Source: Ilumatobacter sp. (GTDB lineage Bacteria > Actinomycetota > Acidimicrobiia > Acidimicrobiales > Ilumatobacteraceae). From it: a DNA stretch of 64,000 nucleotides. The stretch lies in contig JBGCEY010000039.1 of the NCBI GenBank assembly GCA_045106645.1, forward strand, positions 1,701 to 65,700. Direction: 5' to 3'. A program made the position numbers and the translations under genes. Under the pieces are notes generated by a model. It was not told the origin of the DNA and did not search any database. It saw only the letters and a list, made by a program, of their open reading frames with translations. How positions within the stretch are numbered: position 1 is the first letter of the stretch; every line of letters begins with the position of its first letter. Shown here in pieces: positions 57,753 to 63,850 of the stretch.

Positions 57753-57806
57753 CGAAGCTACTCCGCGCGCTCGTTCGAGGCAGATCCCTCCTGTGAACCG
57801 AGTTGC

Positions 57807-57834
57807 TCAACTTTGGCGTACACCCTGCCGATAG
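57807..57834 (+). promoter_or_regulatory. Sigma28 (FliA/WhiG)-like promoter
   Basis: TCAA (57807-57810), N16, GCCGATAG (57827-57834); in-frame GTG at 57842 lies 7 nt downstream. Confidence 0.55.
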
Positions 57835-57841
57835 TTCTCAG

Positions 57842-59977
57842 GTGAGATCCCCGAGTGCAATCGACGTGGCAGATTGCGTAACACCACTCGACCTCGATCA
57901 ACTCGTCGATTCGGGCGACCTGGGCGTAGGCCTCGGGGCGATCGTGGACGAACTCGCGATGGCGCGCTCGATGCTGAACGAAATGCCGTGCGCCATCTTC
58001 GTCAAAGACGTCAACGCGAAGTTCGTTTCGGCGAACACTGCGATGCTCGAGATGTGGAACATGGAGTCGCGTGGCGACATCCAGGGTCTTGACGACTTCG
58101 ATCTGCACGCTCCCCACACTGCGAAGAAGTACGCAGCGATCGACCGGCAAGTGATTCAGACCGGTGAGGCTGTTCGTGGGCACGAAGAGGCCCAGACCCG
58201 ATTCGACGGAACCTCGATCGTGTTGCGCACCACCAAACTCCCGATCCTGGATGTGGACGGCGCAGTGGTGGGGCTGATGGGCTTTTCGTTGGATGTGACC
58301 GACTCGCTTCGAGTCATCGAGGCGCTGGCGGTGACCGAGCGGCGCTATGCGCTGGCCGCCGAAGCGACTCGCGATGGCATCTGGGAATACGAACTGGAGA
58401 CCGACACGATCGTGCTGACGCCGCGATGCGCAGAGATCTTCGAGGTCGAGGCTTCGCCAGATCCGTTGTGCTGGAGCGCGGTGATCGACCGGCTCGGGGC
58501 TGAACAGGCCGAGACGCTGTCGGCGCTGGTGGATCGGGCGACGAGGGACACCTCAGAAGAGCTTGCGCTCACGCTGCACTTCGAACTGGACGATGGCACT
58601 CAGCGCTGGGTTCAACTCGTGGGAACTGTTGACGTCGTCGACGGCGTGCCCATTCGGGTCGTGGGGTCGGTTGCCGATATCACGGCAGATCATCAGCGCG
58701 AGGAGGTGCTCCGACATCAGGCGCTCCACGATGATCTGACCGGGTTGGAGAATCGACGTGCCCTCATTGCAGCACTCGATCGGACACGCGGTGCTCTGCT
58801 CTATCTCGACCTCGATGCGTTCAAGGTGATCAACGACTCGCTCGGGCATCAGGCGGGCGACGAGGTGCTGGTCGCCGTTGCGCGGCGAATTGCCGGGCTC
58901 CTCACGGGAGGGGCGCGCCTGTACCGATTGGGTGGCGACGAGTTTGCCGTGGTGCTGCCTCGAGCCGGCGCAGCCTGGGCTGAGCACGTTGCCCAGCAGA
59001 TCAACAACGTGCTGCGAGATCCGATCCATGTGTTCGGTCTCGACATCTACAGCACCGCCAGCGTTGGGGTGGTCTGCAACCTCGATGATGGTCGCGATGC
59101 GCTCGGCCTGCTGCGTGACGCCGACATTGCCCTGTACCACGCCAAGGGAGACGGCAAAGCGCGTGCGTCGCTGTTCCACCCGGCCATGCGAGCGCGTGCT
59201 GAGAGTGCGCTGGACGTGCAGATGCACATCCGCCGAGCGGTGAAACTGGAGGAATTCGAGCTGCACTACCAGCCGATCGTCGACGCTCGCACGGGTGTGC
59301 TTGCGGGTGTGGAAGCGTTGATTCGATGGCAGCGCACGCCGGATCGGTGTGAGCCGCCCGCTGCGTTCCTGCCGTACTTGGAGGAATCCAAGTTGATCGT
59401 CGGCGTCGGTGCGTGGGTGATCGATCAGGCATGTGCCCAGATGGCGCAGTGGCGCCGAGATCATCCCCTCATGCGAGAGGCTCACGTGGCACTCAACATT
59501 TCGCGTGTGCAGTTCGACGCTCCGGGGCTCGTGGACACGATCTGTGCCGCGGTGGAACGAAACCGTCTTCGTCCGAGCGACGTGGTGGTCGAGATCACAG
59601 AAACTGCGGTGAGCAGCCTGGCTGCAAGCGTCCGACAGGACCTCGAAGCGTTACGTGCGTTCGGGGTGCGTGTGGCAATCGACGACTTCGGGGTCGGTCA
59701 ATCCTCGCTCAGTGCGCTCTACGAGCTTCCGGCTGACATCTTGAAGATCGATCGCAGTTTCACCGCCAGAATCGAGCGGGGACAGCCGGAGCCGGTGACG
59801 AGCGCAGTGCTCGAACTGGCCCATTCGCTCGGAATGACGACCGTGGGCGAAGGAGTGGAAACCGCGGAGCAGGCCGCATGGCTGACCGAGCGATCGTGTG
59901 ACCGGCTCCAGGGCTACCTGCTGGCTCGGCCCATGACGGCCTCAGAGATTCCCGCCGCCTTCGGCGAGAATCGCTGA
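57842..59977 (+). CDS. PAS-PAS-GGDEF-EAL diguanylate cyclase/phosphodiesterase
   Basis: Two PAS domains, HDDLTGLENR, GGDEF, EAL, DDFGVG, KIDRSF, EGVET; no RxxD I-site. Start uncertain (57803, 57842 or 57866). Confidence 0.93.
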   Translation: MRSPSAIDVADCVTPLDLDQLVDSGDLGVGLGAIVDELAMARSMLNEMPCAIFVKDVNAKFVSANTAMLEMWNMESRGDIQGLDDFDLHAPHTAKKYAAIDRQVIQTGEAVRGHEEAQTRFDGTSIVLRTTKLPILDVDGAVVGLMGFSLDVTDSLRVIEALAVTERRYALAAEATRDGIWEYELETDTIVLTPRCAEIFEVEASPDPLCWSAVIDRLGAEQAETLSALVDRATRDTSEELALTLHFELDDGTQRWVQLVGTVDVVDGVPIRVVGSVADITADHQREEVLRHQALHDDLTGLENRRALIAALDRTRGALLYLDLDAFKVINDSLGHQAGDEVLVAVARRIAGLLTGGARLYRLGGDEFAVVLPRAGAAWAEHVAQQINNVLRDPIHVFGLDIYSTASVGVVCNLDDGRDALGLLRDADIALYHAKGDGKARASLFHPAMRARAESALDVQMHIRRAVKLEEFELHYQPIVDARTGVLAGVEALIRWQRTPDRCEPPAAFLPYLEESKLIVGVGAWVIDQACAQMAQWRRDHPLMREAHVALNISRVQFDAPGLVDTICAAVERNRLRPSDVVVEITETAVSSLAASVRQDLEALRAFGVRVAIDDFGVGQSSLSALYELPADILKIDRSFTARIERGQPEPVTSAVLELAHSLGMTTVGEGVETAEQAAWLTERSCDRLQGYLLARPMTASEIPAAFGENR

Positions 59978-59990
59978 GCCGGATCAGGAA

Positions 59991-60167
59991 TCAGGATTCG
60001 TCGGAGTCGCCGGCGAACTTCTCCGCAGCGTCATCGACCTTGTCGAGGTGCTCGGAGTGCTTGCCACCGGTCTTTTCGTCGATGACGTCGGTTGCCTTGT
60101 CGACGCCGTCGGCGACCTTGTCCTTGTTCTTCTTTGCCAGGTCCTTGGCTTTGTCGAAGAGTCCCAT
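59991..60167 (-). CDS. MT0933/Rv0909-like small protein (antitoxin family), 58 aa
   Basis: Not in the ORF track. Hand translation: MGLFDKAKDLAKKNKDKVADGVDKATDVIDEKTGGKHSEHLDKVDDAAEKFAGDSDES; GGAGG SD. Confidence 0.85.
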   Translation of the reverse strand: MGLFDKAKDLAKKNKDKVADGVDKATDVIDEKTGGKHSEHLDKVDDAAEKFAGDSDES

Positions 60168-60205: not shown

Positions 60206-61315
60206 TCAGTATGGCGTGGTGCGGACCAGGTCGGTCAGGAGATCGATGTCGTCGTGCGAGGTGTGCAGGTGCGGTGAGACGCGCAGGCCGCCCTGGCGAT
60301 GGTCGACATGGATGTTCGAAGCAGCGAGCAGCTCGACTGCGTCGGCCTGTGCCCGGACGATGGCCGTGCCGCTGCGGTGTTGTTCACGGTGCGGACTCGT
60401 GACCCGGTCGCCGAGGCGTTCGACGAGTTGGCTCGTGAGGGCGAGGTTGTGCTCACGTATCGCACCGAGGCCGAGCGAACGGATTGCATTGATGGACTCG
60501 CGAGCGATGGCGAACGGCAACACGGTGGGTGTGCCTCCCCAGAATCTGAGCGCGTCGTCGGCGTAGCGGAAGTGGTGGATGTCGAACTCGAATGGATCGT
60601 CGTGTGAGAACCATCCGACGTCGGCTGGCTGACAGCGATCGATCAGGTTTGGCCGGGCCCACAGCCACCCGGCCCCCGGTCCACCGCTGAGCCACTTCAC
60701 GCATGACCCCACCAAGAAGTCGGCATTCCAGTCGTCGGTGTCGATGTCGATGACGCCGGCAGACTGCGCCACGTCGACCACCGTGATCGCGCTGTGTCGA
60801 TGTGCGACGTCGATGATGTCGGCTGCTGGCGTCAACACGCCGGTATTGGAATGAACGTGGGTGATGACGGCGACATCGACGTCTTTCAGGTGCCGGTCCC
60901 ACACCATGGGGTCGAGGGTGTTCTCGGAGTGCTCGATGTAGCGAACGTCGTAGCCCGAGCGTTGGCAGACGAAGCCGAGTGACGGAAAGGCCTCCTCGGT
61001 CAGCAAGATCGTGGGACGTGGTGATCGAAAGGTGGAGCGCAGACCGTCGAGGAGTTTCACCAGTCCGCTCGACACCGTGCTCTGTGGACACACCGAAGCA
61101 GCATCGCCTCCGACGAGCGAAGCCACTGACGACCGAAAGCCGGCGATGGTGTCGAGCCATTGCGGCCATGCGTTCGCTGTGTCGTGGTGCCAGACATCGA
61201 GGTGGTGGCCGACCGAACCCTCGGCACCTCGGGTCGGCAGGCCGATCGAGTGTGAGAGGAGGTAGACCCCTGCTCGGGGGGCAAAGACGTCACCTGCGGC
61301 CGCGGTTGGCGTCAT
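60206..61315 (-). CDS. Kynureninase-like class V PLP enzyme
   Basis: YLLSHSIG, VDVAQSAG, GSCVKWLSGGPG, GWFSH...RFWGGTP; ATG 61315 overlaps the upstream stop. Confidence 0.8.
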   Translation of the reverse strand: MTPTAAAGDVFAPRAGVYLLSHSIGLPTRGAEGSVGHHLDVWHHDTANAWPQWLDTIAGFRSSVASLVGGDAASVCPQSTVSSGLVKLLDGLRSTFRSPRPTILLTEEAFPSLGFVCQRSGYDVRYIEHSENTLDPMVWDRHLKDVDVAVITHVHSNTGVLTPAADIIDVAHRHSAITVVDVAQSAGVIDIDTDDWNADFLVGSCVKWLSGGPGAGWLWARPNLIDRCQPADVGWFSHDDPFEFDIHHFRYADDALRFWGGTPTVLPFAIARESINAIRSLGLGAIREHNLALTSQLVERLGDRVTSPHREQHRSGTAIVRAQADAVELLAASNIHVDHRQGGLRVSPHLHTSHDDIDLLTDLVRTTPY

Positions 61316-62514
61316 TGCTGTCCGATCAGGCTGCGGAGTTGAGCAATGTCGGCATGCCTGGTGGCGATGTCGGATCGGTCCGCAGCGAGGCGACGATCGC
61401 GGAGGCCCTCCAGCGCACGGAGGAGCACGTCGAGTGGAGGGCCGCTCGCCGTGATGCCCTCGAGATGCTCGGGTGGCACTCGTTCTGCGGGTCGCTGGAT
61501 GAAGTTGGTGACGAGCTCGTCGTGATGTTGTGCCGCCGCTCGACCGAGTGCGTTGCAAACGGCGAGGAACGCGGCGGTGTGGCGCTGGAACCAGGCCTCG
61601 TCGGCGTGGTCGCGTTGCTCGAGGAGTGCATCCAGCAGGTTGGGTTGGCGGTACGACTCGTGCAGTCGGCGCTGCTCCTCGGGGGTGAGGTACGGGAACT
61701 TCTCGACGACGACCTGCGTGTAGGAGATGTCGGTCGGTGAGCACAGCCCCAGCAGCATGTCGATCTGGTTGAACGCTGCGAAGTCGCCAGCATTTGCACC
61801 ACGGTATTCCTGCGATCCCACTCGATGCGGTTTGTAGTAGGGGCGGACGCAGAAGAAGAACTCGTCGACGTCGAGGCGGCGCCCGAGCTCGGTGTTGATG
61901 GCCAGCGCCTCGTCGAGGGCGTGCTCGGCAACCCGTAGCAGGTCGAGTGTGGCCGGGTGCGAAACGCCCATGGGATGGATCCGACCGAGTGCGTCCGCGG
62001 CGCGCATGTATGCGAATGCGGAACGTGTGTTGTCGTCGAGGAAGACCCGCTCGGCGTTGCGCCACGTGAAGGTCCGGTACGCCCCGTTCACCGCCCGGTT
62101 GTAGGTCTCCATGTGTGCCGTCATGAAGCGTGGAGCGGTGCCGAGCGTCGCTCCGAGGTGGAGCGCGAGCGCAGATGCCTCGACGAGCGGCGACGTGTGT
62201 TCGCGCGACGGCTCGGTGATCTCGTGGCGCCTGCACGCGGCCATGTAGTACCCGACGTTGCCGAGGAGTTCGAACGCGAGGTCGAACCCTTCGTCGGTGT
62301 TGCCTTCAGCCAGCAGCGCAGCGATCAGCTCGCGGCCCTCGTCGGTGAGCGACTGCTTCAGGTCGTTGCCGACACCGGCCACGTTCGAGCGGTTGTCCTG
62401 TGTTGCGTAGAGATCTTCCAACTCGGTGTTCAGATCGACGAAGCGTCCGCGAATCCAACGATCGAATGCCGCAACACGCGGGGTCGTGGTCGAGTGTGGT
62501 TGGGCTTCGATCAT
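61312..62514 (-). CDS. PrnB/IDO-like heme-dependent oxygenase (DUF1864-like)
   Basis: AFDRWIRGRFVDLNTELE, LGTAPRF, FFFCVRPYYKP, YRGANAGDFA and GITASGPPL motifs; GAGGAG SD before ATG 62514. Confidence 0.72.
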   Translation of the reverse strand: MIEAQPHSTTTPRVAAFDRWIRGRFVDLNTELEDLYATQDNRSNVAGVGNDLKQSLTDEGRELIAALLAEGNTDEGFDLAFELLGNVGYYMAACRRHEITEPSREHTSPLVEASALALHLGATLGTAPRFMTAHMETYNRAVNGAYRTFTWRNAERVFLDDNTRSAFAYMRAADALGRIHPMGVSHPATLDLLRVAEHALDEALAINTELGRRLDVDEFFFCVRPYYKPHRVGSQEYRGANAGDFAAFNQIDMLLGLCSPTDISYTQVVVEKFPYLTPEEQRRLHESYRQPNLLDALLEQRDHADEAWFQRHTAAFLAVCNALGRAAAQHHDELVTNFIQRPAERVPPEHLEGITASGPPLDVLLRALEGLRDRRLAADRSDIATRHADIAQLRSLIGQQ

Positions 62515-62536
62515 GGCTGCTCCTCGTCGGCTCGAC

Positions 62537-62554
62537 ATGAGAACAGATTCTCAT
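62537..62554. promoter_or_regulatory. Palindromic operator between the PrnB-like operon and its TetR
   Basis: Perfect 7-bp inverted repeat ATGAGAA-CAGA-TTCTCAT. Confidence 0.65.
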
Positions 62555-62580
62555 CTCACCGGGAACTGTACCCTCGCGCC

Positions 62581-63198
62581 GTGGCTGAGCAACCCGAAGC
62601 ACTGACGAATCTGGCGGGGCGGGCGAACTCGGAGCGTGCCGACACGCGACGCACCCGAGAACGCCTCGTGGATGCGGTGCAGGCATGGCTTGCGGTGCAC
62701 GGTGCTGCTCCGGAGCGCCTCGCAGACGTGGCGGTCGAGGCCGGTGTCTCCACCGCCACCGCATACCGACACTTTGCTTCGGTCGATGACGTCATCCAAG
62801 CCTTCGTGTTGCGCCTGCCGGTGCGCGCCGCGCAGCTGTTCGACGTATCCGGGGGCCGCAACGCATCCGAGGGAGAGAGACCCGTAGAGGTGCTGCGGCG
62901 GTGGAATCAGGCGTGGGTCGACGCCTGTCTCGAGCACGGCGACCTGGCGGTCAGCTTGCGTTCGCCGATCGGATTCCTGCAGCGTCGCGACGAGGGCGAC
63001 CCGGTGATCACCTTCGCATGTGCACAGATCGAGCCGCTGCTCGAGAAGCTCGACGGCGACCTGATGATGCTGTTGTTCACGTGGAATGTCGTGAGCGATC
63101 CGAGAGAGGTGCTCGACCTGCAACGTCTCGGGTGGAGCGCCGGGCGCATTGCCGACTTCGTCACGAAGTCGGTGTTGGCAACGCCAAGAGTGGACTGA
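62581..63198 (+). CDS. TetR family regulator
   Basis: RADTRRTRERLVDA...RLADVAVEAGVSTATAYRHF; GTG at 62581 inside the long 61957 ORF of the track. Confidence 0.88.
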   Translation: MAEQPEALTNLAGRANSERADTRRTRERLVDAVQAWLAVHGAAPERLADVAVEAGVSTATAYRHFASVDDVIQAFVLRLPVRAAQLFDVSGGRNASEGERPVEVLRRWNQAWVDACLEHGDLAVSLRSPIGFLQRRDEGDPVITFACAQIEPLLEKLDGDLMMLLFTWNVVSDPREVLDLQRLGWSAGRIADFVTKSVLATPRVD

Positions 63199-63265: not shown

Positions 63266-63850
63266 GTGGTGGCGAAACCGTCGGGCCGCCCGATCCGTGA
63301 CGAGGTCATCGACGCCGCGTGTACGAAGGTGCAACAGATCGGTGTCAACTCGCTCAGCTTCGGCGTGTTGGCCAAGGAACTGGGCATCTCCGCTCCGTCG
63401 ATTCACCATCACTTTCGTACCAAAGACGATTTGATCGGCGCGGTCGCTGCGAGATATCGAGCGCAGTTCGGCGACTTCGTCGACACCATCATTCAGGACA
63501 GCGCTGCTGACCGCCTGATGGCATACGCCGCGCTCTTCGATGACACGACTCGCGCTGACCTGATGTGCTTCTGCGGTTCGGTCGCATCGGACTGGCTGAC
63601 CACGGGGGAACCTGCGCGCCAGGAGGTGGGTGCGTTCTTCGAGGATCAACAGCGCTGGCTGAGGGCACAACTCGAACGCGGTGTCGAGCGCGACGAGTTC
63701 GCGCCGATACCCGATGCTGCGATCACCGCTCGCCTGTTCCTCGCGGCGCTGGAAGGCGCCATGCTCATCACCCGCGCTGGCGACGAACGGTCGCGTCCGG
63801 GACTGCTGGCTGGCGAACTGGTGTCGTCATTGCGTCGGCGCATCGACTGA
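63266..63850 (+). CDS. TetR family regulator (NemR/LmrA-like)
   Basis: SFGVLAKELGISAPSIHHHFRTKDDL...MCFCG...LEGAMLI. Confidence 0.9.
   Translation: MVAKPSGRPIRDEVIDAACTKVQQIGVNSLSFGVLAKELGISAPSIHHHFRTKDDLIGAVAARYRAQFGDFVDTIIQDSAADRLMAYAALFDDTTRADLMCFCGSVASDWLTTGEPARQEVGAFFEDQQRWLRAQLERGVERDEFAPIPDAAITARLFLAALEGAMLITRAGDERSRPGLLAGELVSSLRRRID

Follow-up and report, generated by a model that had tools for sequence, protein, structure and literature searches.

Ilumatobacter sp. (Actinomycetota; GenBank assembly GCA_045106645.1) carries a two-gene operon for a haem protein resembling indoleamine 2,3-dioxygenase (IDO) as well as a kynureninase-like pyridoxal 5'-phosphate (PLP) enzyme, next to a divergently transcribed TetR-family gene. 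The operon lies in a 64,000-nucleotide stretch of contig JBGCEY010000039.1 (positions 1,701 to 65,700 of the forward strand), here called the window. It is the Ilumatobacter copy of a known but functionally orphan two-gene module that is widespread in marine bacteria, and the new element of this copy is a lineage-specific TetR switch with a conserved operator. Its probable function is to open and cleave tryptophan, or else a close analogue. The complete explanation, in which a TetR-repressed operon supplies a haem protein that opens a tryptophan-type ring and a PLP enzyme that cleaves the product, is given a probability of about one half. Support comes from the identities and fold of the gene products, the IDO-type residues of the haem protein, the pairing and occasional fusion of the two genes, the co-occurrence of operator and TetR, and a distribution complementary to that of tryptophan 2,3-dioxygenase (TDO).

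A haem protein of the SO4414 clade

The haem protein gives a full-length match to PF08933 (named 'PrnB' in Pfam, formerly DUF1864; E 1.2e-159, 531.7 bits, positions 3-386 of 387). It shares about 54-57% identity with SO4414 of Shewanella oneidensis (PDB 1ZEE/2NWB; E 4e-145), compared with 17-20% in a partial alignment with true PrnB (E 9e-9) and 14-17% with IDO1 (E 0.48 by sequence). An AlphaFold2 (AF2) model of the protein (pLDDT 86), used for fold comparison, reaches TM-scores of 0.88-0.92 to 2NWB, 0.62-0.73 to PrnB and 0.56-0.65 to IDO1. By sequence and by model, SO4414 and the haem protein are orthologues; the predicted fold is that of IDO and PrnB, which the initial annotation of the locus had proposed from its letters. 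The 'PrnB' label used in the same annotation holds for Pfam family and fold but not for specific kinship; it is a family name only and misleading for this protein. PrnB itself (monodechloroaminopyrrolnitrin synthase; 2V7I, 9DFG) has the RP(F/Y)Y-P-RVG-x-Y-G motif in common with the window protein, but the neighbours in the window are the TetR and PLP-enzyme genes and not a prnACD context. Identity with PrnB was rejected on the difference between the two E-values and the lack of a tryptophan halogenase in the genome. Furthermore, a PrnB-type product carries no alpha-amino acid group and would leave a coupled or fused PLP enzyme with nothing to act on.

The SO4414 entry 2NWB is titled 'putative 2,3-dioxygenase' and contains ferric haem, and 1ZEE is the apo form. 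By analogy with this orthologue structure, the window protein is predicted to bind His-ligated haem. Among 25 diverse clade members (mean column identity 68%) and in the window protein, an HH pair that includes the proximal His and the motifs FFxCVRPYY, GANAGDFA and TASGPPL are invariant. In IDO1, Phe226 and Phe227 lie over the indole and Arg231 clamps the tryptophan carboxylate. In an alignment with an IDO1 sequence that was confirmed against the PDB over its C-terminal 118 residues, the invariant F219, F220 and R224 of the window protein fall on F226, F227 and R231 (FFxCVR versus F226-F227-x-x-x-R231). G239-G243 (GANAGDF) aligns with the GxxAG loop of IDO1 at Gly262-Gly265 (GGSAGQS), and H331, the second His of the HH pair, with the proximal His346. 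A profile of the 25 members reaches IDO1 with an E-value of only 0.005-0.05, and the IDO family model PF01231 does not detect the haem gene in its own genome at E <= 0.001. The likeness to IDO1 consists of the fold (TM about 0.6), these residues and the proposed IDO-type chemistry, while the small N-terminal domain and the distal residues differ. Judged from the conserved positions, the protein is a member of the SO4414 clade that resembles IDO and is predicted to bind haem and an amino acid. Relatives at E <= 1e-10 number more than 4,200 (sequence clusters), and at least 530 species genomes encode the protein.

With a structure of the clade solved in 2005/2006, the module is not newly seen. 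A literature search returned no functional study of SO4414/DUF1864 or of a PrnB plus kynureninase pair, and only a structure-annotation note besides a 2008 review (PMC2652831). The PrnB paper PMC11791213 contains nothing on the SO4414 clade. The route had been described as uncharacterised, which is right as to its function (PMC2652831) and overstated as to its novelty. A preprint on the tryptophan chemistry of 'cytochrome P422' concerns DUF6875, an unrelated family, and is not applicable here.

The PLP enzyme, a sister family of kynureninase

The second gene product is a class-V PLP enzyme with an Aminotran_5 match of 98 bits. Its best PDB match in a phmmer search is Pseudomonas fluorescens kynureninase (PfKyn, 1QZ9; E 1.2e-25), compared with 7.6e-14 for the best desulfurase. 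An AF2 model (pLDDT 91) compared by Foldseek gives TM-scores of 0.88-0.89 to kynureninases (0.88 to 1QZ9) and 0.80-0.87 to SufS and C-S lyases. The hidden Markov models (HMMs) for kynureninase (TIGR01814; 73.7 bits, cut-off 246.4) and for the SufS subfamily (NCBIfam; 80.7 bits, cut-off 475) both score far under their cut-offs.

The active site was compared in an alignment of 54 operon-type sequences with PfKyn, the canonical kynureninase of a genus relative and a second kynureninase gene from the same genome (contig C19, see below). The PfKyn positions Ser36, Trp64, Phe129-Pro130, Asp201, Lys227, the GGPG motif, Trp256-Phe257, Gly281/Thr282 and the C-terminal Arg are kept. The PLP-binding core among them (Lys227, Asp201, Phe129, GGPG and the C-terminal Arg) is shared by the window protein and 49-54 of the 54 members. 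Five other positions are changed family-wide, in at least 50 of the 54 sequences: Tyr226 to Val, Asp132 to a hydrophobic residue (Leu or Met across the family), His204 to Gln, Asn35 to His and Tyr176 to Ser. The window enzyme has Val, Leu, Gln, His and Ser at Tyr226, Asp132, His204, Asn35 and Tyr176, respectively, and it is about 40 residues shorter than kynureninase at the N-terminus. On this comparison, the PLP enzyme belongs to a family that is sister to kynureninase and whose catalytic pocket is modified. KynU (TIGR01814; 1QZ9, human 2HZP) is its best match in both sequence and fold and shares its PLP-binding core; the shorter N-terminus, the score under the cut-off and the five changed positions set it apart, and a separate canonical-type copy exists in the same genome.

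A cysteine desulfurase was considered and rejected: no Cys is conserved in the family alignment after residue 228, where the desulfurase nucleophile sits, Phe rather than His stacks on PLP, and the scores fall under the cut-offs. The family does have an invariant Cys76 and a near-invariant Cys228, both outside the nucleophile site. Thus, the proposal of the initial annotation that the enzyme is kynureninase-like and no desulfurase or selenocysteine lyase is upheld in its second half; in its first half it holds as far as the closest solved relative is a kynureninase, and fails at the equivalog level, with Tyr226 and Asp132 lost.

Conservation of the gene pair across phyla

The haem and PLP genes overlap by an ATGA stop/start (plus-strand TCAT at 61312-61315), as had been noted at the outset, and are thereby translationally coupled. 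Their association was followed through 80 loci from Ilumatobacteraceae, Shewanella, Pseudoalteromonas, Halieaceae, Lysobacterales, Woeseiaceae, SUP05, Marinacidobacterales and Cryomorphaceae, 78 of which were informative. In 64 of the 78, spanning Actinomycetota, Pseudomonadota and Bacteroidota, a PLP gene with 39-66% identity follows directly downstream on the same strand, so the pair is conserved across genomes as expected. Eight loci have only a distant class-V homologue 2-5 kb from the haem gene and six have no PLP gene within the flank. The haem and PLP genes are the only conserved genes across loci, and the regulators vary.

In Ca. Pseudothioglobus (locus L079, 7998-10301, plus strand), whose genome is complete and streamlined (1.74 Mb), and in a SUP05 single-cell genome (L091, 4635-6938, plus strand), the two genes form a single open reading frame (ORF) for a 767-aa protein with the domains PrnB (4-386), Aminotran_5 (423-758) and KYNU_C. 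The Shewanella loci (L049-L090) show the SO4414 arrangement: an orthologous haem protein with a PLP gene directly downstream (40-43% identity) that is annotated as kynureninase. The window differs from it in its actinobacterial host, in the ATGA overlap of the genes and in the TetR and palindrome, which replace the AsnC/Lrp of the gammaproteobacterial loci.

The module is present in 28 of the 37 genomes of the window's genus, and the haem gene was found in none of the 24 other families of the order. The Ilumatobacter haem sequences form one clade on a long stem (support 100/100), suggesting a single old acquisition. Contigs from metagenome-assembled genomes (MAGs) labelled Gammaproteobacteria and Ca. 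Azotimanducaceae (L033, L035) nest inside this clade with the same TetR and operator; their haem genes are near-identical to those of Ilumatobacter, and they are probably mis-binned actinobacterial contigs.

Other architectures surround the haem gene in several lineages. In Lysobacterales and Woeseiaceae (L041, L043, L045, L046, L004) it stands with an MFS transporter, an LLM monooxygenase or a 485-residue amidohydrolase, and a PALP enzyme or a cupin-CDGSH protein, together with a distant class-V/KYNU_C enzyme encoded on the other strand, a MarR regulator and, in some loci, an SNF-family transporter. This arrangement may be a different pathway built on the same haem enzyme. The three Marinacidobacterales loci (Acidobacteriota; L003, L047, L069) lack the PLP partner. 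In L003 and L069 the haem gene is part of a run encoding an aldehyde dehydrogenase, an arginase-family protein, a protein of unknown function, an M24 peptidase-like protein, the haem protein, a GMC oxidoreductase and an amidohydrolase. TRAP transporter genes are found near the run of L003, and the neighbourhood of L047 is different.

A dedicated TetR regulator and its putative operator

The TetR_N model of Pfam matches the regulator slightly below its cut-off (22.9 bits versus 24; E 7.6e-5), and TetR matches in NCBIfam are weak and N-terminal. More than 100 solved TetR-family chains match its residues 17-130, the best being 2REK (E 6.7e-8). By these matches, the regulator is a divergent but genuine TetR. 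Orthologues with 59-83% identity are located divergently upstream of the haem gene in 18 related loci.

The perfect palindrome between the two divergent transcription units (Table 1) had been pointed out as a likely operator and is indeed present; it is the sole match in the window with two mismatches allowed, where 0.08 are expected by chance. A GAGA(A/C)-N4-TTCTC palindrome occupies the same place in all 19 TetR-bearing related Ilumatobacter loci, with G3, G5, A6, T12, T13, C14 and C16 invariant (core G-x-GA...TTCxC). It is absent from all six Ilumatobacter loci without the TetR, upstream of which, as in high-GC loci generally, longest-ORF gene calling is unreliable. Operator and regulator therefore travel together, and a TetR and putative site dedicated to this operon, as initially suggested, are supported.

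In most related loci a TANNNT hexamer (TACAGT, TACCGT or TAGCTT) precedes the palindrome by 9-12 nt and is the candidate -10 box of the operon; a generic scan for sigma-70 promoters and terminators was uninformative in this actinobacterial region of high GC content. The operator position would imply repression at or just after the start of transcription. On the other side, the GTG start codon of the TetR gene is located 6-7 nt after a TACCCT hexamer, and its transcript is probably leaderless and auto-regulated. Other regulator types accompany the module elsewhere, namely a divergent AsnC/Lrp protein in 27 gammaproteobacterial loci and MarR in the Lysobacterales/Woeseiaceae form. AsnC/Lrp proteins are typical regulators of amino-acid catabolic operons, including KynR of Pseudomonas.

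Tryptophan-pathway genes in the host and in other carriers

The assembly that contains the window (4.3 Mb, 94.7% complete) encodes no TDO (PF03301), IDO (PF01231) or tryptophan halogenase (PF04820). The claimed lack of prnA and tdo therefore extends to the whole assembly as far as PF04820 and PF03301 are concerned (prnC and prnD were not searched separately), but the claimed lack of a kynurenine formamidase does not, as a cyclase-family candidate is encoded on another contig. The operon was also called stand-alone, which is true locally and not for the genome, where a canonical-type kynureninase is present on a further contig besides the cyclase-family gene. This kynureninase (G000:C19:76187-77332; L100 7188-8333) scores 215 bits against the TIGR01814 cut-off of 246, has all the canonical catalytic residues of PfKyn, with the kynurenine-specific Trp64, Gly281 and Thr282 among them, and stands alone, adjoining a DNA ligase gene. 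Most of the genus's genomes encode the C19-type enzyme, some of them lacking the module, but it is missing from the three that have a canonical TDO.

The module and canonical TDO were never found together in the two genome samples compared. Among the 37 genomes of the genus, only three (G020, G024 and G033) possess a canonical TDO with kynureninase, and all three are without the module (hypergeometric p = 0.011); in G033, the only one whose cluster was annotated, the genes form a kynU-KMO-TDO-aldehyde dehydrogenase cluster. In the order of Shewanella (201 genomes), the module is present in 15 and TDO in 41, with no overlap (p = 0.028), and TDO is found in only one of 50 module carriers. A Woeseiaceae carrier contains a cluster of eukaryote-like 3-HAO, ACMSD, kynureninase and KMO genes (L106, G105:C5, 5623-9807), and neither TDO nor IDO is detectable in that genome. 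In three other carriers a canonical kynureninase is present and TDO and IDO were not found.

Proposed function

According to the favoured explanation, the TetR would bind the palindrome, which is placed just downstream of the presumed -10 box of the operon and overlaps the promoter region of the TetR gene itself. Binding would keep the operon, and probably also the TetR gene, switched off until release by a ligand, for which the substrate or an intermediate of the pathway is the likeliest candidate. Using O2, the haem protein would break open the pyrrole ring in L-tryptophan or in an indole amino acid very close to it, and the product would be a gamma-keto amino acid of the N-formylkynurenine type. 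The PLP enzyme would then cut the bond between C-beta and C-gamma of this product, yielding L-alanine and (N-formyl)anthranilate, possibly without a separate formamidase. Opening of a tryptophan-type ring is favoured for three reasons: the IDO-type Arg, Phe pair and proximal His occur beside a partner that needs an alpha-amino acid; the distribution is complementary to that of canonical TDO; and some pathways have a hole, with downstream kynurenine genes but without TDO or IDO, as is also the case in the window's own genome, which has the canonical-type kynureninase and the cyclase-family gene. Which substrate is used, how each of the two steps proceeds, what induces the operon and how its promoters are laid out are inferred; the tryptophan-type catabolic route first suggested for the locus is the best reading.

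A comparable logic is found in the kynA-kynB-kynU/KynR system of Pseudomonas, which likewise joins a ring-opening haem enzyme and a kynureninase-type enzyme to a dedicated regulator responsive to small molecules. The distribution of this pathway and that of the window's module are mutually exclusive. The Pseudomonas system relies on a TDO-family first enzyme (PF03301), a formamidase and an Lrp/AsnC regulator; in contrast, the window has a TetR and no formamidase in the operon.

Several points weigh against the tryptophan-type explanation. The score of the PLP enzyme is too low for the kynureninase equivalog, and its pocket is altered at positions that are important in kynureninase catalysis. 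A genome that already has a canonical kynureninase needs a reason for a second one, and the operon offers no formamidase. The 14 loci without an adjacent partner have unrelated contexts. The exclusion statistics carry no correction for phylogeny, and the genomes include many incomplete MAGs. In the 2007 PNAS study of Forouhar et al., SO4414 reportedly showed no L-tryptophan dioxygenase activity. No activity has been reported for any clade member, and according to a 2008 review (PMC2652831) the IDO-like proteins of Shewanella 'have no known function'. The presence of two kynureninase-like enzymes could, speculatively, be reconciled if the operon enzyme takes N-formylkynurenine, the immediate product of the haem protein.

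A tentative and rather doubtful extension of the tryptophan-type explanation builds on this idea: SO4414/DUF1864 may be the missed tryptophan-opening dioxygenase of many marine bacteria, replacing TDO or IDO, active only with its partner, and part of a formamidase-independent shortcut that was captured by a TetR in Ilumatobacter. The partner would hydrolyse N-formylkynurenine directly to N-formylanthranilate and alanine, and its requirement would explain negative assays of the isolated haem protein.

Alternative explanations

The same two steps may act on a substrate other than L-tryptophan: a different aromatic or indole amino acid, such as 5-hydroxy-, methyl-, halo- or D-tryptophan, or a marine osmolyte or an algal metabolite. 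The haem step would then perhaps be a mono-oxygenation, as in MarE and TyrH, with the PLP enzyme cleaving or eliminating from the product. This possibility is somewhat unlikely; in its favour are the lack of known tryptophan activity of SO4414 (PMC2652831), the consistently altered active-site signature of the PLP enzyme, the canonical kynureninase in the same genome and the varied contexts of the 14 loci, as well as the distal-pocket residues that differ from IDO1 at 14-17% identity. Other members of the superfamily also perform non-dioxygenase chemistry (PMC11791213). The invariance of the carboxylate-clamping Arg and of the Phe pair over the indole speaks for tryptophan instead, and the exclusion of TDO together with the pathways lacking a first enzyme is hard to square with a substrate other than tryptophan. 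For halogenated tryptophan in particular, raised as an option in the initial annotation, nothing in the data points to it and the genome has no halogenase.

It is improbable that the module is biosynthetic or signalling, that is, that it provides anthranilate, kynurenine or a derivative for a secondary metabolite, pigment, siderophore or signal. Kynurenine-pathway genes of Pseudomonas do feed anthranilate into quinolone signals, and the Lysobacterales/Woeseiaceae loci resemble a small cluster (MFS exporter-like protein, LLM monooxygenase, PALP, cupin-CDGSH, MarR). However, the window and most other loci conserve only the two genes and a regulator responsive to small molecules, with no nonribosomal peptide synthetase, polyketide synthase or tailoring genes. 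The module is retained in the streamlined Ca. Pseudothioglobus genome, and control by Lrp/AsnC and TetR proteins is typical of substrate-induced catabolism.

Very improbable is a sulfur or selenium function, in which the PLP enzyme would be a C-S lyase, a cysteine desulfurase or a selenocysteine lyase, the haem protein would act on a sulfur or selenium substrate or only sense gas or redox state, and no indole would be opened: the slightly higher score of the SufS HMM (by 80.7 to 73.7 bits), the nearby TM-scores of SufS and C-S lyases and the desulfurase-like Gln at the His204 position are outweighed by a phmmer preference for kynureninase of 12 orders of magnitude, the kynureninase-type Phe-Pro stack on PLP with the KxLxGGPG, GWF and GT motifs, the lack of a conserved Cys in the C-terminal domain, and the fusion with a protein of IDO fold whose amino-acid-binding Arg is intact, an arrangement that argues for sequential catalysis.

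Locus layout and neighbouring genes

The features of the locus are collected in Table 1. For the haem gene, the start at M9 is preferred over that of the longest ORF on account of the N-termini of orthologues (MIEAQPHS...) and of a GAGGAG ribosome-binding site that precedes this ATG. The small PF14013 gene downstream of the PLP gene is possibly co-transcribed, but its position is not kept, with a NUDIX gene found there in I. coccineus. A second TetR-family gene directly 3' of the first is absent from that position in I. coccineus, which has glnD instead, and is thus probably unrelated to the operon. The PAS-GGDEF-EAL gene on the 3' side shows no link to the module in other loci.

Table 1. Coordinates (in the window) of the operon, its putative control elements and adjacent genes
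Feature	Position	Strand	Remarks
Haem-protein gene, longest ORF	61312-62538	-	start ATG falls within the operator palindrome
Haem-protein gene, preferred start M9 at 62514	61312-62514	-	400 aa
Kynureninase-like class-V PLP-enzyme gene	60206-61315	-	369 aa
TetR-family repressor gene (putative function)	62581-63198	+	205 aa; GTG start at 62581; divergent from the operon
Putative operator palindrome, ATGAGAA-CAGA-TTCTCAT, ATGAGAACAGATTCTCAT	62537-62554		perfect repeat, between the TetR and haem genes
Putative -10 box TACAGT of the operon promoter	62565-62570	-	10 nt upstream of the operator; read from the sequence
MT0933-like 'antitoxin' family gene (PF14013, E 5e-17)	59991-60167	-	58 aa; GGAGG site of its own; 38 nt downstream of the PLP gene
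Second TetR-family gene (TetR_N + TetR_C_13)	63266-63850	+	directly 3' of the first TetR gene
PAS-GGDEF-EAL c-di-GMP enzyme gene	57803-59977	+	convergent with the 3' side of the operon

Significance

The IDO/TDO superfamily has been studied heavily, yet the SO4414 clade is still without an assigned reaction 20 years after its structure, although it is retained even in streamlined genomes of the SUP05 type. If the tryptophan-type explanation is true, a new kynureninase-like specificity would be added. The compact TetR-operator pair of Ilumatobacter provides a practical handle, as the ligand of the TetR should report the true substrate or product of the module, and this route would be usable should reconstitution of the haem enzyme continue to be difficult.

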